Positions 8,125 through 63,970 of a stretch of DNA of 64,000 nucleotides are shown here, in pieces. The DNA comes from Deltaproteobacteria bacterium (GTDB lineage: Bacteria > Desulfobacterota > Deferrimicrobia > J040), in contig WVXK01000062.1 in assembly GCA_011773515.1 (NCBI GenBank), forward strand, positions 164,928 through 228,927, read 5' to 3'. The position numbers and the translations under genes were made by a program. Under the pieces are notes generated by a model that was not told where the DNA came from, made no database searches, and saw only the letters and a list, made by a program, of their open reading frames with translations. The first letter of the stretch is position 1, and every line of letters begins with the position of its first letter.

Positions 8125-9427
8125 TGACGGGGGACATAACGAGTCCCGTGAGGATCTTCGGGTAGAAATAGGTCGATTTCTGAGGCAGGATAACGCCGCT
8201 TTCAGAAACCTCGATAAACTGTTCCATCCTTATGGGGTTCAGGTAGAACAAGAGCTGGATAACCCCCCCTTTGAGGTCGCTCAACCCCCTCTTCAGGTCC
8301 TTGTAGAACCTTACCTTCTCTCCCGAAGATATCTCCTGCGGCGAGATGCCCAGCACCCTTTCCAAAATCAGTCCGTGAAGGAGGGAAACGTCGAGGTTCC
8401 TGACGGCGGGTGGCAGGGAGGGAAACCAGCCCGCATCCAGATCGTTTATGTCGTCGATCTTCAACAGGGAGCAATTCCCCGTTTTATCAACCATACCGAA
8501 GATGCGCTCCTCGGGCGTTGCAGAAGATACCTTTTCAACCATCTCATCGACTCCCCCGGAAAGATTCAAGAGCTTAAAGGGAACATCAGCCTGCCTGGTG
8601 AGCGTCTCAATTTTATCCCGGTCAAGCCCGTATACTCCCCTGTGGGTCGGCAGGATCACGAGGCCTCCATCCCCGGTTGCCGAGAGGAAGACGAGAACAT
8701 AGTTCCAGGCCGAAGAAGGATCGGCGTGGGCCCTTTCCCGCATCCAGTTCCTGTATTCAAGGGCCGTCTCATACCGGTGGTGGCCATCGGCAATGAATAC
8801 CCTCCTCCCCGAAAGGAGACTTTCCACTTCCCCTATCACCTTCTCGTCCGTTACCACCCACATGCGGTGACAGACACCGACATCGTCCAAAACTGACACG
8901 TCAGGCGCAGACGCCTGAATCGCCTGAAGAAAGAGGGAGGCGGCATGGTTTTCATCGTCATCGTATATCGCGAATATCGGGCTGGTCGCCGTGGCTGTGT
9001 GCTTCATGAGATTCAGCCGGTCCAACTTGGGGGTCAGAAGCGTCCTCTCATGGGGGAATACGCTTCCCTCTCCGAACTTTTCAAGCAACATCCCGCAGAT
9101 GAACCCTGTCCGCACCAGCCTTCCCATACCCTCCAGCTCGAACTCCTGCTCGTAATAGTAAAACGCGGGCTTTTCATCCCTGACCAGCACCTGCTCTGCA
9201 ACAGAGGCCTCGAGCATCTCATTTGCCCGCCTGTATTTCTCGTCCCTCTCCCCAACTCCGTCCAGTCCGTAGTCGATCCAGACGATATTATTCGGGTGTC
9301 TCGCATGAAGCTTTATCTGATCCTCTTTCGATATCACATCGTAGGGGGGAGCGACGACGAGGCCCTTGTCTTCGATCTGCTCTCCATAGCGCAATCCGCG
9401 TATCGGTCTTACCTTAGCCATTGTCAA
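8102..9427 (-). CDS. DUF1015 family protein
   Basis: 441 aa with the conserved ADGHHRYETA motif and the overall DUF1015 layout. Confidence 0.65.
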   Translation of the reverse strand: MTMAKVRPIRGLRYGEQIEDKGLVVAPPYDVISKEDQIKLHARHPNNIVWIDYGLDGVGERDEKYRRANEMLEASVAEQVLVRDEKPAFYYYEQEFELEGMGRLVRTGFICGMLLEKFGEGSVFPHERTLLTPKLDRLNLMKHTATATSPIFAIYDDDENHAASLFLQAIQASAPDVSVLDDVGVCHRMWVVTDEKVIGEVESLLSGRRVFIADGHHRYETALEYRNWMRERAHADPSSAWNYVLVFLSATGDGGLVILPTHRGVYGLDRDKIETLTRQADVPFKLLNLSGGVDEMVEKVSSATPEERIFGMVDKTGNCSLLKIDDINDLDAGWFPSLPPAVRNLDVSLLHGLILERVLGISPQEISSGEKVRFYKDLKRGLSDLKGGVIQLLFYLNPIRMEQFIEVSESGVILPQKSTYFYPKILTGLVMSPVSENDRVG

Positions 9428-10058
9428 ACTCCTCTGCGATTTTTAAAATCTCATTTGCTTTGACGTCGCCTTCCCGCAGGATCCTCAGAACGTTGCCATC
9501 GACCCGCACAACTGTCGAACCGGCAGATGGAGGAAGGTCTTTTCCATCGATAAACAGGACCTCGTCTCCTTCGAAATCCCCCATCACCTGACCGGTGGTC
9601 AGGGGGACCGCCCCTCTCGATTTGTTCGCCGATGTCCCCGTTGTGACCCCGCCGCACATGCCGGCAAGTGAGAGGGAAACCGCTGAATCGGGAAGCCTGA
9701 CCCCCACCGTTCCGTCCTCTGATCCCACGATGAGGGCAACGTGTCGACGGGCGCGTGTCACGATGGTCAACTTCCCCGGCCAGAAGACTTCCGACAGCTT
9801 TTTCCCGAGAGGGGACAGAGGGGCACAGATATCTTCGATCCCGACTGCACTGTCGATAAACAGAGGGACGGGCCTTCCACTTTCCCTCCCCTTCAGTCTC
9901 ATAAGGTTTTCGACGGCACCGGCCACCCTGATGTCCACACCCATACCGTAGAGGGTATCTGTCGGGTAAATTACCACCCCCCCTTGACGCAGATACCCCT
10001 CCACATCGTCTCTGACCCTATTTGAACTGAGAAATTCCTCGATTTTTACCCGCTTCAT
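9414..10058 (-). CDS. tsaC: L-threonylcarbamoyladenylate synthase (YrdC/TsaC/Sua5 family)
   Basis: VIYPTDTLYGMGVD YrdC signature, single-domain length. Confidence 0.75.
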   Translation of the reverse strand: MKRVKIEEFLSSNRVRDDVEGYLRQGGVVIYPTDTLYGMGVDIRVAGAVENLMRLKGRESGRPVPLFIDSAVGIEDICAPLSPLGKKLSEVFWPGKLTIVTRARRHVALIVGSEDGTVGVRLPDSAVSLSLAGMCGGVTTGTSANKSRGAVPLTTGQVMGDFEGDEVLFIDGKDLPPSAGSTVVRVDGNVLRILREGDVKANEILKIAEEFDNG

Positions 10059-46913: not shown

Positions 46914-48527
46914 TCACTGAGCTTTAGAAGGATCAGCTGACGCAATGGCTGCCGCGTCGCCAGTTGACTTGTCGTGTAAGAAACCACGCCCTTTCATATC
47001 TTCCTTGATTCTCGCTTTGAGAATTTTCCCCTGGCTGTTTCTCGGCAGACTCTCGGTGTACTCGATGGAAGCGGGGACCTTGAAAGGCGCCATATTGCTC
47101 CTGGCATATGCGAGAATCTCGCTCTTTTCGATGGTAGCCCCCTCTTTGAGCACGACTATCGCCACCGGCACCTCACCACATTCGTAATCGGGTTTTGAGA
47201 TGACCGAAACATCATCGACGGCTCCGTGTTCTAAGAGTATCTCCTCGACTTCAGCGGGATCAACGGGGACTCCTCCCCTGATTATGATATCCCGCAGCCT
47301 GTCGATGACGTAAATATAGCCACCCTCATCAATCGAAGCTATGTGACCGGTGTAAAGCCAGCCATTTTTAACTTTCTCCGCGGTAAGATAGGGGTCATTG
47401 TAATAACCTTTCATAACGGTGGGTCCCCTGACTGCAAGCTCTCCCACCATGTTCGGCACGATTTCCACCCCCGAAGAATCGATGACCTTTACGCGAATCC
47501 CGACCGCCTCCTTGCCGATCGAGGAAAGCCTCCTCAAACCAACAGCGTCGTCCCTCCCCATTTCTTCGTTTACGTTGAGGAAACTTATGTTCCCCGACGA
47601 TTCAACCTGTGCAAAGGACTGGACGAAGCCACAATGAAATATCGACATCGCTTCTTTGAGAAGTAAGGGGTCTACCGGGATGATACCGCTGTAGGAAATC
47701 TTTTTCAGAGAAGAGATGTCGTGTTTACCTTTTCTCGCCTCGGAGGCGAGTTGTGCCATCATCTGCGGAACGAGGAGCAGCTGCGTAACGCGATGCTTCT
47801 CAATGAGCTTCAGTGCCAGTTCCGGCTCAAAAATCCTCATGATTACCACTTTTGCGCCGGGGAGGAAAAACTTCATCATCCTCCCCGCACCGGCAAGGAA
47901 GGGGAGCGAAGCCGTTGACAGGTACACATCACTGCGTGAGATGTTCAGTTCCAGTGCGGAGAAGTAAGAGGCGCACATAAGATTTCTGTGGGTGAGCTGC
48001 GCCCCTTTGGGGTTTTTCCCGATTGACCCTGCATAAGAGATAAACGCCACATCGCTTTCATCCAAAAAATCTCCTGCGGCGCCGCTTCGGTACCCCCTCC
48101 CCATGAGGGCAGCCAGGGGAGGATAGCCGGACACATCCCCGTCTATACAAACCAATTTCTCCAGGTAAGGGCAATATTCCTTTATTGCATCTACCGAGTC
48201 CACGAACTTTTTTTCAAAGAAAAGGAACCTCGGTTCAAGGTCCTGCAAGATCCGGATCAGTTCCGGGGGCAAGAGGAAAAAGTTGAGCGGGGAAGTGATC
48301 GCCCCCATTCCCGCAAGCGCAAACAGTATCTCCACGTACCGGGGGGAATTCCGGGTGAGAACCGCCACGGGTTCGCCTCTCCGGACCCCCATCTCACGGA
48401 AGAGAGCGGTTAAATAATCCACCCTCTTTTTCAGCTGCCTGTATGTCAGCACCTCATCGTCGCAGACGACCGCCTCTTTTTCGGGAAAAACACGGGCATT
48501 GTGTTCGAGGATATCTCCTACTAGCAC
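46914..48527 (-). CDS. AMP-dependent synthetase/ligase (acyl-CoA synthetase family)
   Basis: 537 aa with AMP-binding core motifs (YSGSIGKNPKG-like region, GELAVRGPTVMKGY, GWLYTGHIASIDEGGYIYVIDR). Confidence 0.85.
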   Translation of the reverse strand: MLVGDILEHNARVFPEKEAVVCDDEVLTYRQLKKRVDYLTALFREMGVRRGEPVAVLTRNSPRYVEILFALAGMGAITSPLNFFLLPPELIRILQDLEPRFLFFEKKFVDSVDAIKEYCPYLEKLVCIDGDVSGYPPLAALMGRGYRSGAAGDFLDESDVAFISYAGSIGKNPKGAQLTHRNLMCASYFSALELNISRSDVYLSTASLPFLAGAGRMMKFFLPGAKVVIMRIFEPELALKLIEKHRVTQLLLVPQMMAQLASEARKGKHDISSLKKISYSGIIPVDPLLLKEAMSIFHCGFVQSFAQVESSGNISFLNVNEEMGRDDAVGLRRLSSIGKEAVGIRVKVIDSSGVEIVPNMVGELAVRGPTVMKGYYNDPYLTAEKVKNGWLYTGHIASIDEGGYIYVIDRLRDIIIRGGVPVDPAEVEEILLEHGAVDDVSVISKPDYECGEVPVAIVVLKEGATIEKSEILAYARSNMAPFKVPASIEYTESLPRNSQGKILKARIKEDMKGRGFLHDKSTGDAAAIASADPSKAQ

Positions 48528-48606
48528 TGCTGGTTCCTTTTTCTCCCCCCTATTGAAAAAATTATACTACGATAAAAAAATAAGCAAGGCGTTTGGAGAC
48601 AGCCCG

Positions 48607-48888
48607 ATGGATGATGCATATGACGTCTACCCCATTCTCCACAGGGAAAAAATCTATAACCTCATTACCGCCATCGACCTGACCTTCGTTGAAGTAAGAT
48701 CCCTGATCGACTATCTGGAAGAGCAGGAGGCGTTCGGAACAGGTGAGCACGAAGAGGCTATGGAATCGGGCAGACTCTATTCCGTTGAACTTGATGATGT
48801 CGTATACGAGGTTGACGTCCTCGGATACGAAATTGCCATTTACTCGAGAGTCGAGCGCCACGACGGCCCCGCCGAGGAAAACAGCTGA
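48607..48888 (+). CDS. Small acidic hypothetical protein (93 aa)
   Basis: GGAGA RBS 8 nt upstream of the ATG; protein-like composition. Confidence 0.35.
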   Translation: MDDAYDVYPILHREKIYNLITAIDLTFVEVRSLIDYLEEQEAFGTGEHEEAMESGRLYSVELDDVVYEVDVLGYEIAIYSRVERHDGPAEENS

Positions 48889-48955: not shown

Positions 48956-51091
48956 TCAACCCCTCGAAGAGAGAAGGAAAGACATTGCAAGGACGAAGAG
49001 CGACAAGGCACCGATTACGAGGGAACCCACCGCCACGCCGCAGAGGGGAAGAAGGAATGAAGCGCCGGTGAAGGCGGCCGATGCCGAACCGGCAAGGTCA
49101 AGGGCATAGGCGCGGCTGTAGGAACCCAGGCGGTGACCCGATCCGGCAAAAAGCCCCCCTCCGCCCGATCCCGTGACAAAAAGGGCAAAGTAAAAGAGCG
49201 GGGACGGGGGAACACCGTTTTGCCCTCCGAAGACCCACAATACGAGTATGGCCGAAAGCACCGTCCCCGCGAGCATGGCGAAAGAAGCTTTCTTTACGCT
49301 TCCGAGGACCCCGGAAGACCCCGCTGCGAGCCCCACCATGTAGGAGCAGAAAAGAAGACCGATGTGGGTGTACACGCTGCCGAAAGCCATCTGAAAGGCA
49401 AATATGAGGGATACCTCAACGAGTATCCCCAGGGCTCCGGAGAAAAAGAGTATCGCCTGGGCAAAGCCTCTTCCCAGCAGGGCCGTGGTGCCGAAAAAAA
49501 AGAGGGCGTAAAACATAAGAAAGGAAAGCAAAATCATGGCAGGGGAAATCTTGAAAAGCCTGACGATCGCCCTGTCGGCAATGTCTGGGTGCTGGGAAAA
49601 AACCGAGGAGAGCCCGTGGATTACCGGGAGTTGGTCGAAGATTCCCCCGCCACCCCTTCCGGTCAGAAGTGACCGAGCCCATGCCTCCCGTTTGCCATCC
49701 ATCCGGAATGGGACTATCTCCGGGACGAAGTAGACGTTTTTCAAATGCCTTGACCGTAACCGGCCCGCCACCACGTCGAAATCTGCCTTATCGACCGGAA
49801 GGGAGGGTGAAGCGATAAAAGAAAACTCATCACCGGGGATAATGCGAAGGGCGCCGAAAGACCCGAGCATGGCGGAATGAAGAAAATCCAGGATATGGAC
49901 GTAATCATCGCCGAGGTAGTCCCCGCCGAAGGGAAGTCTTACGAACAAGATGCCCGTCTTTGCGAGAGCTCCGGAAAGGTTCCTGTAAAAGGATGCCCGC
50001 AATGTCCGGAGCGAAGAGAGGGTTACAGGCAACCCCGGCGCCTGGATGATGACGTCGTACTCTCTTCCCCCCCCGTTGAAAAAGCGCACCGGATCCTCGG
50101 GAACATACACTTCTGCGAGACCCTTGCCACCGATCTGGGCAATGACACTCTCGGCGTGCAGGAAGTCAGCGTCGATTACGGACACGCTCACGTCCCCATA
50201 TTTTTCACACTCCCGGACAAGTGGCAGAAGGCTGGCGCCTATCAGGAGAAAGCGGCGAGGCGTCTTTCCAAACGATGCCGGGAAGTGGACCATCTCCTCG
50301 GAAAAAACAGGGTCCCCGGAAACGAACTCCCTCTTTAAATTGGCATAGAATGTTTTCTGTTCCCCATCAGTGGTCACGTCAAACCTTCCCGTCAGAGTCT
50401 GTCTGTAATGGGTGTGTTCGAACCCGCGAAAAGACCAGGCAGAGGTGAGGGAATCGATATAGCGCGAACAAAGAAGCAAAGCAAGTGACGCAAGCAGCAG
50501 CAGAAAAGGGGAGACAAGGGAGAGCTCCACCCCATTCAGAACGCGGCGGACGAGGATAATTGCCGCTGCGCTCGAGAGAAGACAGACGGAAAGAAAAAAA
50601 TAGGGGCCCGCCTCGATGCAATATGGAATGAGGGAGAGCACACCCGCAATCGATGCGCCGATGGCCTCATAGAAAAAGACGCTGCTCTTCCCGGCCCGGG
50701 GGTCGTCAGTGAGCGAGAGTTGCCGAAAGAGCATGCCACCGGCAAGGGAGGGAAGGAGGAGGGGAACGGAGGTGACGAGGAGAACGAGGTCAAACGGTGG
50801 CGCCTCACCCGGCAAGATTCCCACGATGACACGCGCCCCGCGGGTAAACAAAACGCCCAGCAGCGCGAGAAGGGGAATGGCGAAGGCGAGAGCTTCGATC
50901 AGCCTCCATGAAGGCCTCACGCCCTCCCGGAAGGAAAGGGCGCCGGCACCGCCGGAGAGCAGCCACAGGCCCAGCCCCATACCGTAGACCACCTCGTTCC
51001 CACCGCACTGGGAAAAAACTTCTCTCAGGATAACGACCTGCGACAGGAGCGTTGAAAAGCCCAGGAGAATGGAAAACAGGGCAGTTTTCAT
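48956..51091 (-). CDS. Polytopic membrane protein with a central spermidine/spermine synthase-like domain flanked by N- and C-terminal multi-TM regions
   Basis: About 7 TM helices, then an aminopropyltransferase-like fold (FLLIGASLLPLVRE...VIDADF...DVIIQAPGLP) with a degenerate GGGDGG motif, then ~6 more TM helices. Its ATG overlaps the rSAM stop. Confidence 0.6.
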   Translation of the reverse strand: MKTALFSILLGFSTLLSQVVILREVFSQCGGNEVVYGMGLGLWLLSGGAGALSFREGVRPSWRLIEALAFAIPLLALLGVLFTRGARVIVGILPGEAPPFDLVLLVTSVPLLLPSLAGGMLFRQLSLTDDPRAGKSSVFFYEAIGASIAGVLSLIPYCIEAGPYFFLSVCLLSSAAAIILVRRVLNGVELSLVSPFLLLLASLALLLCSRYIDSLTSAWSFRGFEHTHYRQTLTGRFDVTTDGEQKTFYANLKREFVSGDPVFSEEMVHFPASFGKTPRRFLLIGASLLPLVRECEKYGDVSVSVIDADFLHAESVIAQIGGKGLAEVYVPEDPVRFFNGGGREYDVIIQAPGLPVTLSSLRTLRASFYRNLSGALAKTGILFVRLPFGGDYLGDDYVHILDFLHSAMLGSFGALRIIPGDEFSFIASPSLPVDKADFDVVAGRLRSRHLKNVYFVPEIVPFRMDGKREAWARSLLTGRGGGGIFDQLPVIHGLSSVFSQHPDIADRAIVRLFKISPAMILLSFLMFYALFFFGTTALLGRGFAQAILFFSGALGILVEVSLIFAFQMAFGSVYTHIGLLFCSYMVGLAAGSSGVLGSVKKASFAMLAGTVLSAILVLWVFGGQNGVPPSPLFYFALFVTGSGGGGLFAGSGHRLGSYSRAYALDLAGSASAAFTGASFLLPLCGVAVGSLVIGALSLFVLAMSFLLSSRG

Positions 51092-52245
51092 GCCTTCTTT
51101 TCGAATATACCCTCGATTTTTTCACCACAGTGGGCGCACTTTCCATTCTGAACGTGATTTTCACCAATGAAATAGACCAGACGGGAAATTACCCTTTTCC
51201 CGCACCGGGGGCAGTAGGTGTGCTCTCCCGGATCTCCCGGGACATTCCCCACGTAAACATACTTGAGGCCCGCATCGATGCATACCTCCCTCAACCTTCT
51301 CAGGGTAGACACGGGCGTGGGTGGTAGGTCTCTCAAAAGGTACTGGGGATAGAAGCGTGAAAGGTGGAGAGGCACATGTGCCCCCAGCTCTTTTTCTATC
51401 CAGACCGCCATTTTTTTTAACAGATCGGGGTCATCGTTGAGGGTGGGAACCACGAGATAGACGATCTCCAGCCATGTGCCCGAGGAGGCAATGCTTACGA
51501 GCCCATCGAGAACGGGCTTCAACTCGCCACGGACTATCTTTTTGTAATACTCCTCTTCGAAGGCCTTCAGATCAACCTTTACCGCGAGGACCTTTGACAA
51601 GAGCTCCTTCAGCGGTTTTTCCTGAATGTATCCGGCCGTTACGACAATGCTGTCCACTCCCGCCTCGTTGCCGGCAACGGCACAGTCGTACATGTACTCG
51701 TAAAACACGACGGGTTCGCTGTAGGTATACGCTATGGTCATACAGCCGGATTCCTTCGCCCTCCTTACGATATCTTCCGGAGAGAGACGATAGTTTCGCG
51801 TCTGTTCGGGCCTTGACTGGGAAATCTCCCAGTTCTGGCAAAACTTGCAGTTGACGTTGCACCCGGCTGTGGCCATTGAAAAGGCCCTGCTTGCCGGGTA
51901 GACGTGAAAGAAGGGCTTTTTCTCGATGGGGTCGACATGGACGGTACAGGGCCGGGAATGGATGAGGGTCATATATTTCCCCGCCCTGTTTTCCCGCACC
52001 CCGCAGTAACCCCTTTCCCTGTCGCCGACGAGACACTTCCGGGGACAGAGAAGGCACTCGATTTCGAGCCCCTGTTTCCTTTCGTAATATTTCGCCTCTC
52101 TATCCGATAGATCAGAAGACAGGGAAAAGGCAATGGCGTCGCCCGTTGCTGCCGCCATCCTCCTTAAGGACTCCGGGCGGGGGACGATCAGAGAGGCGGC
52201 ACAGGTCCCGCATGCGGTGAAAAACTGTCTCCTCGATATTTTCAC
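51088..52245 (-). CDS. AmmeMemoRadiSam-system radical SAM enzyme with an N-terminal twin-arginine-like leader
   Basis: CNVNCKFC CxxxCxxC motif, family-typical ECLLCPRKC N-region and C-terminal CPRCG...CAHCG. N-terminus MKISRRQFFTACGTCAASL matches the Tat S-R-R-x-F-F pattern. An alternative start at Met-30 is possible. Confidence 0.7.
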   Translation of the reverse strand: MKISRRQFFTACGTCAASLIVPRPESLRRMAAATGDAIAFSLSSDLSDREAKYYERKQGLEIECLLCPRKCLVGDRERGYCGVRENRAGKYMTLIHSRPCTVHVDPIEKKPFFHVYPASRAFSMATAGCNVNCKFCQNWEISQSRPEQTRNYRLSPEDIVRRAKESGCMTIAYTYSEPVVFYEYMYDCAVAGNEAGVDSIVVTAGYIQEKPLKELLSKVLAVKVDLKAFEEEYYKKIVRGELKPVLDGLVSIASSGTWLEIVYLVVPTLNDDPDLLKKMAVWIEKELGAHVPLHLSRFYPQYLLRDLPPTPVSTLRRLREVCIDAGLKYVYVGNVPGDPGEHTYCPRCGKRVISRLVYFIGENHVQNGKCAHCGEKIEGIFEKKA

Positions 52246-53147
52246 AATCCCACCACCTCCCTCACGGTTTCCACACCTTCACCGGCCACTCCGAGTTCAT
52301 ACGGCGGAAGGGCGGCATCGAATATGTACTGGGGAAACCGTTTCTCTTCCCGCAGGGAGGGAAGCCCTCTCGACCTGCGGAGCTCTTCGAGTTTCTCGTA
52401 GCCGGCTTGGTCGAGCGAAACGGGATCCTCGGCTACATACAGAACACGGCCCTCCTCCCTCCACCTGGCGTTGAAGGAGGGACCGCCGTTGCACTGGACG
52501 AAAGTTCCATCCAGGATTGAGAGGACAACCCTGTTTTTGACCACCGGGGCACTGAAGAGGTCCAGTATGTAGGGGGTGCAGCCGTTCATATGATACTTGT
52601 TCGGGTTGTGGATCGCCCCGAAAAAGTTTTTCATCGTCCCCGTGTAACCGCAGAGAATGTGATCCTTGAGAACGGGAACGCTTATGACGAAATCGCTCAT
52701 CCTGGTGAGGATCCTGGAGAGGAGGCTTCCCACCTCGCCGTTGACCGTGAGTTTACTTTCATAGCCAACGCCGTAGGTGTCCGTCCCAAAACACCTGATC
52801 CCGGAGGAGCTGTAATTCAATCTGAACCCGGCCCGGACCAGCTCATCATTCTGCCTGTCCCATACGGTAACGTTGCTTTCGGAGAGCCCCGCCTGCACCA
52901 GCAGATCGGCGATTCCGTACGCCACTGCCATCCTCGTCTGTATACCGGGCACTCCGAGACAATTTACCTTGATGGAAACTCTCGCCCTCTTTCCGAAGCG
53001 GGATGCCAGATACTTTTTCCACCCCATTCCGGAGAGCATTTCCAGCCCTCTTTTCAAAGCAACCGACATGTCCCGGGGATCATAGGAAGCTGCCTTTTTG
53101 GGGCTCTTGACGCTGATTTCCGCAACTCTGGATCCCATGTCATTCAC
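52242..53147 (-). CDS. DUF362 domain protein
   Basis: KVNCLG and LKDHILCGYTGTMKNFFGAIHNP match the PF04015 core (KPN...KtH...G.T...KN.FG). Overlaps both neighbours by 4 nt. Confidence 0.65.
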   Translation of the reverse strand: MNDMGSRVAEISVKSPKKAASYDPRDMSVALKRGLEMLSGMGWKKYLASRFGKRARVSIKVNCLGVPGIQTRMAVAYGIADLLVQAGLSESNVTVWDRQNDELVRAGFRLNYSSSGIRCFGTDTYGVGYESKLTVNGEVGSLLSRILTRMSDFVISVPVLKDHILCGYTGTMKNFFGAIHNPNKYHMNGCTPYILDLFSAPVVKNRVVLSILDGTFVQCNGGPSFNARWREEGRVLYVAEDPVSLDQAGYEKLEELRRSRGLPSLREEKRFPQYIFDAALPPYELGVAGEGVETVREVVGL

Positions 53148-54658
53148 CGGTTCTCATCATCACCGAATACTTCCGCCTCGAAGGAATAAATGTCAACTTC
53201 CTTTTTCCAGGCAAGGGAGGGAAGCCCCGCCTTGACACAGGTCTGGGAGAGAAACGTTTCGACGTCCCATCCGTTTTTTACTGCCACCTGCGGAAGAAGC
53301 AGACCCCTTTTGTGCCCTCTCGAGACCATGAGGCCGTGCCTGCCCACCTCAATGCCCGATATATCCTCAACCTTTTCAAGCGGAGTGAGCACGGATATCT
53401 CGACACGTATGCTCGCAAGTTCCGGGGGTGTGAGCGGCGGAAACCGTGGATCCTCAGTAGCGGATGAGACGGCGCACTCCATGATCGTCCGGTAGAGGGG
53501 ATAGTGAGCCTTCGTGTACCCTATGCAACCCCGGAGTTTTCCCCCTTTCTCTATCGTGACGAATGCCGCGCCGGGGGCTTTCAATTTCTCGCTCGAAACC
53601 TCGACATCGGGAATATTCCCCATTTGAACGAACTCGTTGATGGTTTTCCTGGCTATTGCGAGGAGTTCCCTTTTCTCGCCTTCGCTCAGGTAACCGGTGC
53701 CGCCAAGTTCCCCTTCCTTCATCGTTCCCCTCCTTTGGGAAGTCTTCTCACCACTTTTCAGTGCGATCGCCGATACATAGCCAACCACCGATGCGGTATC
53801 TCCCGTTGCATCCCCGGAATCTGCGTACCCCGTGATGTATACCGACGCGGCTCCCAGCCTTTTCCACAGCATGAGTGCCAGCACCGACGCGGCGCCTCCG
53901 CATGCCTCACACTTCCCTTCCTTGAGATCACGGATGAGCCCGCCGTCGTCTAGATCCTGCACCCTTTTCCTGAACACGCCATCGAGGACTTCCCCCGCGC
54001 TCCGGCTCTTGTAATGTGAGAGGTCAGTGCTCGCCACGACGAGGACCCTTCTCCCCCGTACCGCGCTGAAAATAGCGTCGGCTACCTTTTCCAGCAGGCT
54101 CCTCTCGATCGCGTTCACTTCGATGGGAACGAAGGAAAAGTCACCGAGAGCTACCTGAAGAAAGGGAAGCTGCACTTCGAGGGAGTGCTCCCTCACAAAG
54201 AGCGCGGGGGAACTTTCAAACAGGCCGGGAGAGCGGGATTGGATATCGCGAGCAGCGCGGCTGTCGATGTTCACCAGCCCGAGGGGGGTCCTGAATGCTC
54301 CCTCGAGCATGATCGCGGCCCTTTGCACGCGAAGGAAGTGGCTGGGCCCCAGTAAAACGACGAGGTCATAGCGGTTTCCCCTTATCTCCCTGTAGGCCCT
54401 CGCGGCAGTCCTCCCGGAGTAGACGTATCCCGCATGGGGAGCGATAATACCGGCAATCCTCTTGCTCTGCAGGGGAACCTCTTTACCCTCCTCCATGAGG
54501 CCCTGTATCATACCGTTCAGTTCTTGCGCATCGGAGGGATAAAAAGAGCCGGCCCAGGCGGGCTCCCTCACGGAAGCACCTTCCGCAGGAAGGGGGTAAT
54601 GGAGGGTTACACAAAACGACAGGACAAAAACTGCGGCCAATGTCCCCGCCCTCGCCAT
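53144..54658 (-). CDS. Memo-like (AmmeMemoRadiSam protein B) - AMMECR1 (protein A) fusion with N-terminal Sec signal peptide
   Basis: Signal peptide MARAGTLAAVFVLSFCVTL...AEGA, Memo motifs IIAPHAGYVYSG and DLSHY, C-terminal AMMECR1 GAAFVTIEKGGKLRGCIG...LLLPQVA. AGGAGG RBS before the ATG at 54658. Confidence 0.7.
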   Translation of the reverse strand: MARAGTLAAVFVLSFCVTLHYPLPAEGASVREPAWAGSFYPSDAQELNGMIQGLMEEGKEVPLQSKRIAGIIAPHAGYVYSGRTAARAYREIRGNRYDLVVLLGPSHFLRVQRAAIMLEGAFRTPLGLVNIDSRAARDIQSRSPGLFESSPALFVREHSLEVQLPFLQVALGDFSFVPIEVNAIERSLLEKVADAIFSAVRGRRVLVVASTDLSHYKSRSAGEVLDGVFRKRVQDLDDGGLIRDLKEGKCEACGGAASVLALMLWKRLGAASVYITGYADSGDATGDTASVVGYVSAIALKSGEKTSQRRGTMKEGELGGTGYLSEGEKRELLAIARKTINEFVQMGNIPDVEVSSEKLKAPGAAFVTIEKGGKLRGCIGYTKAHYPLYRTIMECAVSSATEDPRFPPLTPPELASIRVEISVLTPLEKVEDISGIEVGRHGLMVSRGHKRGLLLPQVAVKNGWDVETFLSQTCVKAGLPSLAWKKEVDIYSFEAEVFGDDENR

Positions 54659-54816: not shown

Positions 54817-55428
54817 ATGAGAGCAAAAGCCTCTTTCACCCTCGCTTTTATCTTTTTAACGGCAACTTTCTGCGTCGGAAATTCCACCGCCTCGTCGAAC
54901 AGGTTTTTTGACTTCTCTTCGGGGAGAAACACCGCCGGCTTCTTCACCTCTTTCGCAGACGATTTTTCCTACTATTTCGGCCAGGTGAGAACAAAGCCGG
55001 CCGGCACCTTTGAGGTGGGACTCAAAGGAGGGGCAGTGGAGATAAAAAAAGGCAGGAACGAGGGGACCGGCGCATATCTGGGGGTGGACGGAAATGTGCG
55101 GATCTTCGGTTTCGAGGGCTCTTTCCCCTTCGACCTCTACCTGGCAACCGGCTTTTCGAGCATACTGAAGTCGCGGCGGGCCCTGAACGAGTTCTTCATA
55201 GGGCCCGTAGGCGAGAAGACTCTCACCTCTGCCACCGCTCTGGTTATTCGGGGAACCCTCGGCATGGAGGTGGCCGCGCGAGGGGGTTCTCTCACTGACG
55301 ACGATGACCTGGATCTCTTTATCACCCCGGGTCTCGTTTTCAATATCGGGGATTCAGCAAACATATTCCTGGAGCTGAAAGCCGGAACGGACACTGCTGC
55401 TGGCATAGGGATAAACTTTTCCTTCTGA
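54817..55428 (+). CDS. Small outer-membrane beta-barrel protein (OmpW/OmpA-like, hypothetical)
   Basis: Signal peptide, alternating hydrophobic beta-strands, C-terminal aromatic residue (…GINFSF). Confidence 0.55.
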   Translation: MRAKASFTLAFIFLTATFCVGNSTASSNRFFDFSSGRNTAGFFTSFADDFSYYFGQVRTKPAGTFEVGLKGGAVEIKKGRNEGTGAYLGVDGNVRIFGFEGSFPFDLYLATGFSSILKSRRALNEFFIGPVGEKTLTSATALVIRGTLGMEVAARGGSLTDDDDLDLFITPGLVFNIGDSANIFLELKAGTDTAAGIGINFSF

Positions 55429-55487: not shown

Positions 55488-56402
55488 TTGCAAACCCATC
55501 TCGGAGCTATTTTCCCAAAAATCGTGGCGGTGGTGGTACCCGTTTTCTCGGTTATCGGGGGAGGCTATCTCTTCGCCAGATGGAGGAAGAGCCGGGATCT
55601 TCATTTCGTCACCGATTTCATAACCTACGTGGCCGCCCCGCTCCTCGTGTTCTACTCTCTCACCGACAGGACCCTTCCTTTTGAAAATTTTTCCCTTATC
55701 TTTGGCAGCTCCCTGTTTATCGCCATCCTGGGCTCTGCCCTCTCCTTTTTCTCCTCGAAGAAGATAGCAGGCGGCTCTCCAGCGGCAACCCTCACCATGG
55801 CATTCATGAACTCGGGGAATATGGGCCTGCCGGTCTGCTACTTTGCCTTCGGCAGGGATGGTCTTGCCGTCGCCACCATCTTCTTCGTCACCATGTCGAT
55901 AGTCCACTACACGTTGGGCACAGCCCTGGCGAGCGGAAGGGGAAAAGTCGGAGATGCGCTGCTTTTGCCGCTTGCCCCTGCAGCTATCCTCGGCATCGCC
56001 ATCAACCGGCTGAACATTACCCTCCCGGTCCTGATAGAGCGACCCGTAAAGCTGCTTGCCGACTCGGCGATACCCCTCATGCTCTTTTCTCTTGGAGTCC
56101 GCCTCTGGAACATCGAGAAGACTGACCTGAAGCTCTCCTACACCCTGGCCACCATGCGTCTTTCGATCGGCATCCTGTCCGGCTTCTGCGCAATTATGCT
56201 GTTTGGTCTCAGCGGCACCTCTGCCTTCGCCGTTCTCCTCCAGGCGAGCATGCCACCGGCTGTTTTCAATTTCATCCTCTGTGAAAAATTCAACAAAAAT
56301 CCGGGGCTTGCCGCATCAACGATACTTGCGGGGACGCTCATGTCCCTCGCAACCATTCCACTGCTCCTTTCCCTGATCTACCTGTACTTCCCGATACGGT
56401 AG
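55488..56402 (+). CDS. AEC-family (auxin efflux carrier-like) transporter
   Basis: 304 aa, ~10 TM helices, typical AEC/MdcF architecture. Confidence 0.7.
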   Translation: MQTHLGAIFPKIVAVVVPVFSVIGGGYLFARWRKSRDLHFVTDFITYVAAPLLVFYSLTDRTLPFENFSLIFGSSLFIAILGSALSFFSSKKIAGGSPAATLTMAFMNSGNMGLPVCYFAFGRDGLAVATIFFVTMSIVHYTLGTALASGRGKVGDALLLPLAPAAILGIAINRLNITLPVLIERPVKLLADSAIPLMLFSLGVRLWNIEKTDLKLSYTLATMRLSIGILSGFCAIMLFGLSGTSAFAVLLQASMPPAVFNFILCEKFNKNPGLAASTILAGTLMSLATIPLLLSLIYLYFPIR

Positions 56403-57008
56403 ATCACTGGGGAAGAGAGATGCGGGGGGGGGAAGCTCCAGGCGGGGATGGATATCAATAAATACCCTGACAAGGTCAGGGTCAAACTGGGAGCCGCTGC
56501 AATTGCTTTTCTCCGCAAGAGCCCTTTCCGGCAAAAGAGCGCTCCGGTATGCCCTGCTCGAGGTCGTTGCATCGCAGGTATCGGCGATGGCGAGCACTCT
56601 TGCTTCCAGGGGAATCGTCCCTCCCCTCAGGCCGGAAGGATATCCCTTCCCGTCATACCTTTCATGATGATGCATTATGATGGGGAACACGTTTTTCAGG
56701 GATTCGATGGTGTGCATGAGGATCCTGAAATTTACCGGTTTGAAAATATAATCCGAGGCGCCCAGTTTCATCGCATCGACAGCAGTTTCAATGTCACCCT
56801 TGCCGGACATGATCACCGTGGCGAGGTTACGGTTTTCCCTGGCCTTTCCGAGGAGCTGGGGACCGTTCAGGGCAGGCATGTTCAGATCGGTCAGAAGGAG
56901 ATCGAAGGTGCCGGAACTGAGCATCGTAAGAGCCCTCTCACCGTTTTCCGCCTCCTCCACCGTATATCCCTCGATTCTTAGCCTCTCGCTTACAAGCTCC
57001 CTTATCAC
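56316..57008 (-). CDS. Response-regulator receiver domain fused to a partial HD-GYP domain. The start is non-canonical or truncated.
   Basis: Receiver with phospho-acceptor in LLLTDLNMP, then HHERYDGKGYP and DTCDATTSSRAYR (the C-terminal half of HD-GYP). The upstream HD dyad is absent. Receiver beta-1 (ILVADDEK) follows an in-frame stop directly, with no ATG. Confidence 0.55.
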   Translation of the reverse strand: MIRELVSERLRIEGYTVEEAENGERALTMLSSGTFDLLLTDLNMPALNGPQLLGKARENRNLATVIMSGKGDIETAVDAMKLGASDYIFKPVNFRILMHTIESLKNVFPIIMHHHERYDGKGYPSGLRGGTIPLEARVLAIADTCDATTSSRAYRSALLPERALAEKSNCSGSQFDPDLVRVFIDIHPRLELPPPASLFPSDLPYREVQVDQGKEQWNGCEGHERPRKYR

Positions 57009-63882: not shown

Positions 63883-63970
63883 GCCGAAGTGGTGGAATTT
63901 GGTAGACACGCCATCTTGAGGGGGTGGTGGGCTAAAACCCGTGCGGGTTCGAATCCCGCCTTCGGCACCA
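63883..63970 (+). tRNA. tRNA-Leu (anticodon GAG), type II with long variable arm, CCA encoded
   Basis: Acceptor stem GCCGAAG/CTTCGGC; anticodon stem CCATC/GGTGG with loop TTGAGGG; long variable arm; T-arm GCGGG-TTCGAAT-CCCGC; then ACCA. Confidence 0.85.

Follow-up and report, generated by a model that had tools for sequence, protein, structure and literature searches.

What does a radical S-adenosylmethionine (SAM) enzyme do in an operon that it shares with a large membrane protein, and on which side of the membrane does it work? The question is raised by four genes on the minus strand, at positions 48956 to 54658 of a 64,000-nucleotide stretch of DNA (the window, in the following) from contig WVXK01000062.1 of a Deltaproteobacteria bacterium. 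They encode a Memo–AMMECR1 fusion, a DUF362 protein, an AmmeMemoRadiSam-type radical SAM enzyme (rSAM) and a 711-amino-acid polytopic membrane protein with a spermidine-synthase-like (SpeE) fold. An initial annotation, made from the letters alone, had taken them for parts of a larger membrane-associated machine. All evidence in the present analysis is computational, signals and topology being called from motifs and from the positive-inside rule. It leads us to regard the operon as a conserved, extracytoplasmic and membrane-docked variant of the AmmeMemoRadiSam system; because all evidence on location is motif-based, we place the likelihood of this model only somewhat above even.

The four genes are co-directional and tightly packed, as the initial annotation had described them, and its family assignments for the first three were confirmed by profile searches. 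Gene 1 (53144–54658, minus strand) encodes 504 amino acids when counted from the ATG at 54658, the longest open reading frame extending to 54784; GGAGGAG stands just 5' of this ATG, and the resulting length compares with 507 amino acids in the orthologue of the syntenic relative L087 (GCA_964429585.1). The product exceeds the curated cut-offs of both Memo (TIGR04336, 251.2 bits against 26; Pfam PF01875, 188.5 bits) and AMMECR1 (TIGR04335, 190 bits against 99; PF01871, 192 bits), with the Memo domain at residues 31–298 (53765–54568), the AMMECR1 domain at residues 331–498 (53165–53668), and 1zq7, 1vaj and MEMO1 3bcz as relatives in the PDB. The AMMECR1 motifs defined as RGCxG/RGChG and DxRF/DxRa (PMC2034487) are intact in the translation as RGCIG (within LRGCIGY) and DPRF (within DPRFPP), and the Memo motifs PHAGY, PSH, DLSHY and ACG were found. 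Gene 2 (52242–53147, minus strand; 301 amino acids) encodes the DUF362 protein, for which PF04015 gave 70.9 bits against a cut-off of 24 over model positions 1–199 of 200. Gene 3 (51088–52245, minus strand; 385 amino acids) encodes the rSAM, with 369.3 bits for TIGR04337 (cut-off 220), 61 bits for PF04055, and the cluster motif CX3CX2C in the form CNVNCKFCQNW; its nearest characterised relatives are PflA-type activases (PflA, NrdG and other activases of glycyl-radical enzymes). Gene 4 (48956–51091, minus strand) encodes the polytopic membrane protein of 711 amino acids.

Conservation of this gene set was examined with the rSAM alignment as the anchor. A scan of one genome per species yielded at least 593 relatives, of which the best 80, 44–60% identical, were kept, and the open reading frames of these 80 loci were searched with the window proteins and with a profile of the membrane protein. 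The loci come from more than 15 phyla, including Acidobacteriota, Aminicenantes, Zixibacteria, Calditrichota, Latescibacterota, KSB1, Eisenbacteria, Omnitrophota, Thermodesulfobacteriota, Planctomycetota, Elusimicrobia and Nitrospirota. The membrane protein was detected at 46 of the 80 loci, DUF362 at 37, nearly always directly upstream of the rSAM gene, and the Memo–AMMECR1 fusion likewise at 37. When the count was restricted to the 43 loci whose two flanks each extend for 5 kb or more, 36 had DUF362 or the membrane protein, 12 had all four families, and 4 had none. After unsupervised clustering of all neighbours, the four families alone were strongly recurrent, and their gene order differs among phyla. 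Five relatives of the membrane protein were also traced to their contigs (four of them at 24–28% identity), and all five adjoin an AmmeMemoRadiSam-type rSAM gene.

At individual loci, the same pattern was observed. L087 carries the identical operon at 54, 59, 68 and 34% identity, together with the same flanking genes, and there as in the window the three AmmeMemoRadiSam components are encoded together on one strand by overlapping or adjacent genes. Of the five contigs to which relatives of the membrane protein were traced, L003, L005 and L006 also encode a Memo–AMMECR1 fusion, and L002 has DUF362, rSAM and membrane protein in the order of the window. The rSAM gene of L002 (8757–10043) contains two compensating frameshifts, its middle third lying in another frame (open reading frame 9080–9970), and for this reason is absent from the stored gene calls; the frameshifts are probably an assembly error. 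Linkage of the four families is conserved, and the larger conserved machine suspected in the initial annotation gained support, in that DUF362 and the SpeE-like membrane protein recur beside this rSAM clade in many phyla and the adjacency is not unique to one genome. A lineage-specific accident that brought together four functionally unrelated genes is hardly conceivable and can be set aside as refuted, since the same families are adjacent in varied gene orders across those phyla, and since a membrane-protein family that makes up roughly 6e-6 of protein clusters stands at more than half of the loci. It is this recurrence of the gene set, and not the gene overlaps described below, that lies far beyond chance.

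The first indication of where the system works comes from the rSAM N-terminus. Residues 1–33 (52147–52245) read MKISRRQFFTACGTCAASLIVPRPESLRRMAAA/T and follow the (S/T)-R-R-x-F-L-K-type pattern of twin-arginine translocation (Tat) signals, with an SRRxFF motif (SRRQFF), a hydrophobic h-region and an AxA site. This segment lies wholly upstream of the family model, as position 1 of TIGR04337 aligns with residue 51. The GTG start codon is preceded by a strong Shine-Dalgarno sequence, GGGAGGTGGTGGG, and the Tat motif follows directly after it. Among the 80 relatives, 56 carry an RR motif with a hydrophobic stretch at the N-terminus, 7 a KR or RK variant and 13 a Sec-like hydrophobic N-terminus, and only 2 have no N-terminal extension. 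By its motifs, the rSAM is a predicted Tat substrate with a signal of the textbook type.

The Memo–AMMECR1 fusion carries a putative signal peptide of another kind. Residues 1 to about 28 (54575–54658), with the N-terminus MARAGTLAAVFVLSFCVTLHYPLPAEGA, precede position 1 of the TIGR04336 model, and essentially all orthologous fusions have Sec signals or lipoboxes (LGGC, AAGC, PLGC, LIGC). The DUF362 proteins of Acidobacteriaceae and several other groups bear Tat motifs of the SRRDFLKK type.

The nature of the DUF362 protein was approached through its predicted structure. The AlphaFold2 model had a mean pLDDT of 93.6, and the sole significant PDB matches in the fold search were LarA-family nickel-pincer-nucleotide racemases (E 1.5e-6 to 5e-4); the overlay is weak, with TM-scores of 0.44–0.51 and root-mean-square deviations of 5–10 Å. 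A sequence search of the PDB with this protein gave no matches. Pfam clan CL0471 groups DUF362 with DUF2088/LarA (PMC11770544). Conserved in DUF362 are K161-D162-H163 and N181-P182-(N)-K184-(Y)-H186, residues that were not placed on the LarA structure. The likeness to LarA/DUF2088 racemases thus consists of these Lys/His-rich motifs (KDH, HNPNKYH), a two-domain fold, and the fact that the model matches these enzymes alone; the differences are the length, about 300 against about 420 amino acids, and the low TM-scores. None of larB, larC and larE turned up near DUF362, no search aimed at them having been made. As judged from the model, a LarA-like, putative cofactor-binding fold fits with export by the Tat pathway.

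The fourth protein provides the link to the membrane. Its AlphaFold2 model, built with 23 homologues (pLDDT 84.8, pTM 0.86), consists of seven transmembrane helices (TM1–7; residues 1–221, 50429–51091), a soluble SpeE-fold domain (residues 222–516, 49544–50428) and seven further helices (TM8–14; residues 517–711, 48959–49543), all on the minus strand, in agreement with the sandwich of a SpeE-like fold between two membrane domains that had been proposed at first. In a Foldseek search, the soluble domain, with the SpeE arrangement of an N-terminal beta-hairpin domain and a Rossmann domain, matched the aminopropyltransferases 1uir, 3o4f and 1inl (E 1.7e-9 to 1e-7; TM-score on the target 0.64–0.71). 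The protein belongs to a large family: 11,258 representatives of clusters at 50% identity were found at E<=1e-30, and the best 150 matches are all full-length, of about 750 amino acids. Three homologues of the window protein are close, and many more are distant, with 24–28% identity and lengths of 700–940 amino acids; conservation among the close relatives is 59–89%, and the polar residues Q18, R23, E24, N32, E33, W43, R84, Q567, Y574 and D665 of the membrane bundle are invariant.

The orientation of this protein was predicted by the positive-inside rule. Lys and Arg residues number 17.3 on average in the loops on the N-terminal side and 3.4 in those on the soluble-domain side; all 38 relatives compared show the same direction, and each helix bundle, N- or C-terminal, gives the same orientation when taken by itself. 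On this ground we predict a periplasmic position for the SpeE-fold domain, where the putatively exported partners would also be.

As to the activity of the SpeE-fold domain, the alignment was informative. At the position of the SAM loop the window protein reads LIGASLLPL where relatives have GGGxxG, and its QAPGLP corresponds to LPDP or LPEP in most relatives, a site that we take, from the alignment and from general knowledge of SpeE, to be equivalent to the SpeE motif DSTDP. The window lineage is without the GGGxGG loop and without both acidic residues of the D-S-x-D-P motif. No Pfam family was matched by the 711-amino-acid protein, PF01564 being absent at E<=0.01, and the scores for NF002956 (23.7 bits against 472) and NF002010 (19.9 against 260) fell below the curated cut-offs; distant relatives do match PF01564, and some PF07690. 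The earlier label of an aminopropyltransferase-like protein therefore holds for the fold only: PF01564 and NF002956 are failed, and the glycine loop and the catalytic Asp are gone. Since both motifs are lost, the window protein should not be named an aminopropyltransferase. Because the SAM-binding residues have disappeared and yet the protein is conserved, a scaffold role is suggested in the window lineage, as more probable there than a transferase activity of the SpeE-fold domain. Membrane-anchored spermidine synthases (NF002956/PRK03612) and fused major-facilitator-type/spermidine synthases share the N-terminal multi-helix bundle followed by a SpeE-fold Rossmann domain. They differ from the window protein in that the latter has a second seven-helix bundle after the soluble domain, its soluble domain is predicted to face outward, and its GGGxGG loop and catalytic Asp are lost.

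These data also bear on a cytoplasmic alternative, in which AmmeMemoRadiSam and DUF362 would cooperate, on the cytoplasmic side of the membrane, with a membrane-embedded aminopropyltransferase that is active, so that a polyamine-like group is made or attached. The SpeE fold is clear, GGGxxG and the D/E-P motif are kept in most distant relatives, the DUF362 protein of the window has no signal peptide, and L003 adjoins genes for Orn/Arg decarboxylase, deoxyhypusine-synthase-like and agmatine-deiminase proteins. Yet the window protein itself has neither the glycine loop nor the acidic pair and fails both spermidine-synthase models, polyamine genes occur at no locus other than L003, the SpeE-fold domain is on the side poor in Lys and Arg in all 38 sequences, and the Sec and lipoprotein signals of Memo–AMMECR1 are irreconcilable with a cytoplasmic location. 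We consider this alternative improbable. The polyamine genes of L003 (13038–18130) comprise a pyridoxal-phosphate-dependent decarboxylase, an Orn/diaminopimelate/Arg decarboxylase, a deoxyhypusine-synthase-like and an agmatine-deiminase-like gene beside the system; a recurrent polyamine-gene link was rejected, as these genes were found in no other locus surveyed.

Besides the four families, membrane redox proteins recur in the neighbourhood. DsbD_2/CcdA-like proteins are encoded at 11 loci, where, in Omnitrophota, the usual gene order is rSAM–DsbD_2–membrane protein; NapH-like Fer4_5 polyferredoxins are encoded at about 9. At L006 (800–3628; P0007, 942 amino acids), the membrane-protein orthologue itself has a C-terminal CX3CP extension (Fer4_5, NapH/NosR-type), by which a putative electron conduit is fused directly to the SpeE-fold membrane protein. 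A protein of 84–89 amino acids is encoded between membrane protein and rSAM at L003 (10410–10664) and L005 (10310–10579); it has two to three transmembrane helices and conserved His residues and gave no Pfam match, and might serve the system as an additional subunit for redox reactions in the membrane or for anchoring. A secreted DUF6599 protein (PF20244) is encoded at 15 loci, just upstream of DUF362 (L014, L019, L020, L028, L031, L002 and the Acidobacteriaceae loci); that of L002 is fused to an AI-2E-type transporter.

The redox neighbours help to judge whether the N-termini might instead be membrane anchors, or vestigial Tat motifs for chaperone binding, on enzymes that act at the cytoplasmic face, in which case the topology prediction would be wrong. 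Such a situation would remove the problem of SAM and reductant supply, and vestigial Tat motifs do occur on cytoplasmic proteins such as NarG. Against it stand the full n-h-c architecture of the signals with AxA sites, the independent agreement of the Sec and lipobox signals on Memo–AMMECR1, the identical orientation that each half of the membrane protein gives by itself, and the DsbD/CcdA-type and NapH-type neighbours, which are classic outward electron conduits. Overall this explanation appears unlikely, if the least so of the alternatives weighed here.

Altogether, three independent lines suggest an extracytoplasmic location: the Tat signal of rSAM, the Sec/lipobox signals of Memo–AMMECR1 together with the Tat signals of DUF362, and the topology of the SpeE domain. 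Of the machine drawn in the initial annotation, the conserved membrane-linked set remains; a cytoplasmic setting has become less probable, the targeting signals having been missed, and the rSAM Tat signal, the Memo–AMMECR1 signal peptide and the outward SpeE-like domain shift the picture to a machine that is probably extracytoplasmic.

How might such a machine operate? The rSAM would be folded and loaded with its Fe-S clusters in the cytoplasm and then exported by Tat. DUF362 would be exported alongside it, by its own Tat signal in many lineages, and in the window lineage probably as a hitch-hiker on rSAM, whose gene overlaps that of DUF362. Tat export of heterodimers with a single signal is established (PMC10924467). 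The Memo–AMMECR1 fusion would leave by the Sec pathway and would be lipid-anchored in many relatives. The three proteins could then meet on the periplasm-facing SpeE-fold domain, with the 14-helix protein as docking platform. The same protein would probably also act as a conduit through which a cytoplasmic or membrane-embedded molecule reaches the outer face; speculatively, this could be SAM or a related nucleoside where GGGxxG is kept, or the substrate itself. Electrons may be supplied in other lineages by the neighbouring DsbD/CcdA-like or NapH-like membrane redox proteins, and the product might be a radical-SAM-dependent modification of a component of the cell envelope. In this full form, the system would be the first radical SAM system outside the cytoplasm, with a Tat-exported rSAM, a LarA-like protein, a secreted or lipid-anchored Memo–AMMECR1, SAM or substrate delivered by the 14-helix protein, DsbD/NapH-like electron supply and a modified envelope component. 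Its genes are widespread, in Acidobacteriota, Aminicenantes, Zixibacteria, Omnitrophota and Desulfobacterota as well as in other phyla. We offer this detailed scheme as a tentative proposal that is less likely than not.

Several observations weigh against an extracytoplasmic system. We know of no radical SAM enzyme that acts outside the cytoplasm, and to our knowledge neither SAM nor low-potential reductants are available there. Aerobic hosts such as Acidobacteriaceae would expose a periplasmic Fe-S/rSAM enzyme to oxygen, and the vestigial Tat motifs mentioned above count on this side as well. About 13–20 of the rSAM relatives, mostly from Omnitrophota, have N-termini that are Sec-like and not Tat-like, which is difficult to square with the insertion of Fe-S clusters. 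DUF362 is without a signal peptide of its own in Aminicenantes, in L002 and in the window lineage, the case of the window being the one that counts here. At Aminicenantes-type loci, Memo–AMMECR1 was not found within 10 kb, and no DsbD_2, NapH-like or DUF6599 homologue was found in the whole 64-kb window, which leaves this operon with no electron conduit in its vicinity. When a second clade was scanned from the side of the membrane protein, rSAM was nearby at 21 of 80 loci, and Memo–AMMECR1 or DUF362 at none of the 80. The partnership is accordingly frequent and not obligatory.

In the second clade, rSAM often occurs as two or three tandem paralogues. The metagenomic loci L134, L137, L140, L147 and L151 have such paralogues beside the membrane protein, most of them with Tat motifs. 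The pair of rSAM and membrane protein is the most persistent link of all. This persistence, with several rSAMs in tandem and no Memo–AMMECR1 or DUF362 nearby in the other clade, would be understandable if the membrane protein were a client, its SpeE-fold domain being modified or activated by a PflA-like rSAM with Memo–AMMECR1 and DUF362 as maturation factors. The arrangement would resemble that of activases acting on glycyl-radical enzymes, to which the closest characterised relatives of rSAM belong. No glycyl-radical-type motif or obvious target site was noticed in the protein, however, a systematic search not having been made. Many organisms, archaea among them, moreover have the trio but not this membrane protein (TIGRFAM description; PMC2034487), and so rSAM must have another, ancestral substrate. 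Such a client relationship seems to us rather unlikely.

The gene junctions are in keeping with an operon of tightly packed frames. Overlaps of 4 nucleotides were found at all three places where they had been noted, 51088–51091 (rSAM/membrane protein), 52242–52245 (DUF362/rSAM) and 53144–53147 (Memo–AMMECR1/DUF362), all on the minus strand. The sequence ATGA, which had been given for every junction, occurs only at 51088–51091; the other two read GTGA and involve GTG start codons. That at 52242–52245 is preceded by GGGAGGTGG, and the same GTGA overlap is present at the DUF362/rSAM junction of L087. For DUF362 there is an alternative in-frame ATG at 53138, 5 nucleotides past the upstream stop; with either start the genes are still tightly packed. 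Overlaps of 4 nucleotides are the commonest class in bacterial operons, and those seen here are for that reason ordinary in themselves. A promoter and terminator scan of the region gave the same counts as shuffled sequence and is thus uninformative on the operon boundaries.

Around the operon, the AMP-binding enzyme encoded downstream (46914–48527) was considered and is not part of the unit, because three opposite-strand genes intervene in L087. A gene for about 92 amino acids lies just downstream of the operon on the plus strand (48607–48888, within the open reading frame 48499–48888) and starts MDDAYDVYPILHREKIYNLITAIDL; L001 and L087 have it in the corresponding place with 58–60% identity, and it has no Pfam match. 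On the other side, divergent from the operon, 54817–55428 (plus strand) encodes a protein of 203 amino acids whose N-terminus resembles a signal peptide; it matches no Pfam family, has a counterpart of 54% identity at the same place in L087 and adjoins an AEC-family transporter (55488–56402). A response-regulator/HD-GYP-like open reading frame at 56316–57008 (minus strand) has 230 amino acids against 381 in the syntenic gene of L087, and may represent an internal deletion or a shorter variant. The sole Rfam match in the 64 kb was a single tRNA gene (63883–63967, plus strand).

How does this operon compare with known systems? The link of AMMECR1, Memo and rSAM through gene neighbourhood goes back to Balaji & Aravind 2007 (PMC2034487). 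With the established AmmeMemoRadiSam system, the operon shares all three components above their cut-offs, a Memo–AMMECR1 fusion of a type already known, and the conserved motifs for catalysis: AMMECR1 has RGCxG and DxRF, Memo its His/Asp/Cys site, and rSAM CX3CX2C. It differs in that DUF362 and the 14-helix SpeE-fold protein join the trio, and in that the components have, or ride on, predicted export signals outside the family models, the matches beginning only at residue 31 in Memo and at residue 51 in rSAM. No curated model in Pfam or NCBIfam ties DUF362 or the 14-helix protein to AmmeMemoRadiSam. The link between the three families was reportedly extended by Burroughs et al. 2019 (JBC), who are said to give 'extended contextual associations' for Memo–AMMECR1, and for this reason part of the present findings may already be published. 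A full-text literature search found no description of the extended system or of export signals, the contexts in Burroughs et al. 2019 not being covered by it.

Other exported systems offer partial parallels. Tat-exported redox enzymes with conduits (NapH/NosR-type CX3CP polyferredoxins, DsbD/CcdA) likewise combine a Tat signal on an Fe-S protein with DsbD_2/Fer4_5 neighbours, which recur here, whereas the cargo in the present case would be a radical SAM enzyme, for which no precedent of export is known to us, and the window has no conduit gene. Tat hitch-hiker pairs, such as the small and large subunits of hydrogenases and DmsAB, resemble the proposed rSAM–DUF362 pair, in which the signal-less partner comes from an overlapping gene. 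Transmembrane acyltransferases (AT3/TmAT; PMC12423673) may provide a functional analogy, in that a membrane domain gives an extracytoplasmic catalytic domain access to a cytoplasmic donor; their fold and chemistry are unrelated, and the analogy concerns the proposed function alone.

Conservation of AMMECR1 and Memo reaches from archaea to humans, in whom they have been linked to disease. For these families without known biochemistry, the linked partners described here (a LarA-like protein, a SAM-fold membrane protein and electron conduits) narrow the search for a substrate, and the predicted location at the outer face directs it to envelope lipids or proteins. A large uncharacterised membrane-protein family, comprising over 11,000 clusters at 50% identity, gains a genomic context. 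The system is genetically testable, since cultivable Acidobacteriaceae have it. If export of the rSAM is true, it would break the assumption that radical SAM chemistry stays in the cytoplasm, and would pose the problem of how the enzyme is supplied with SAM and low-potential electrons.

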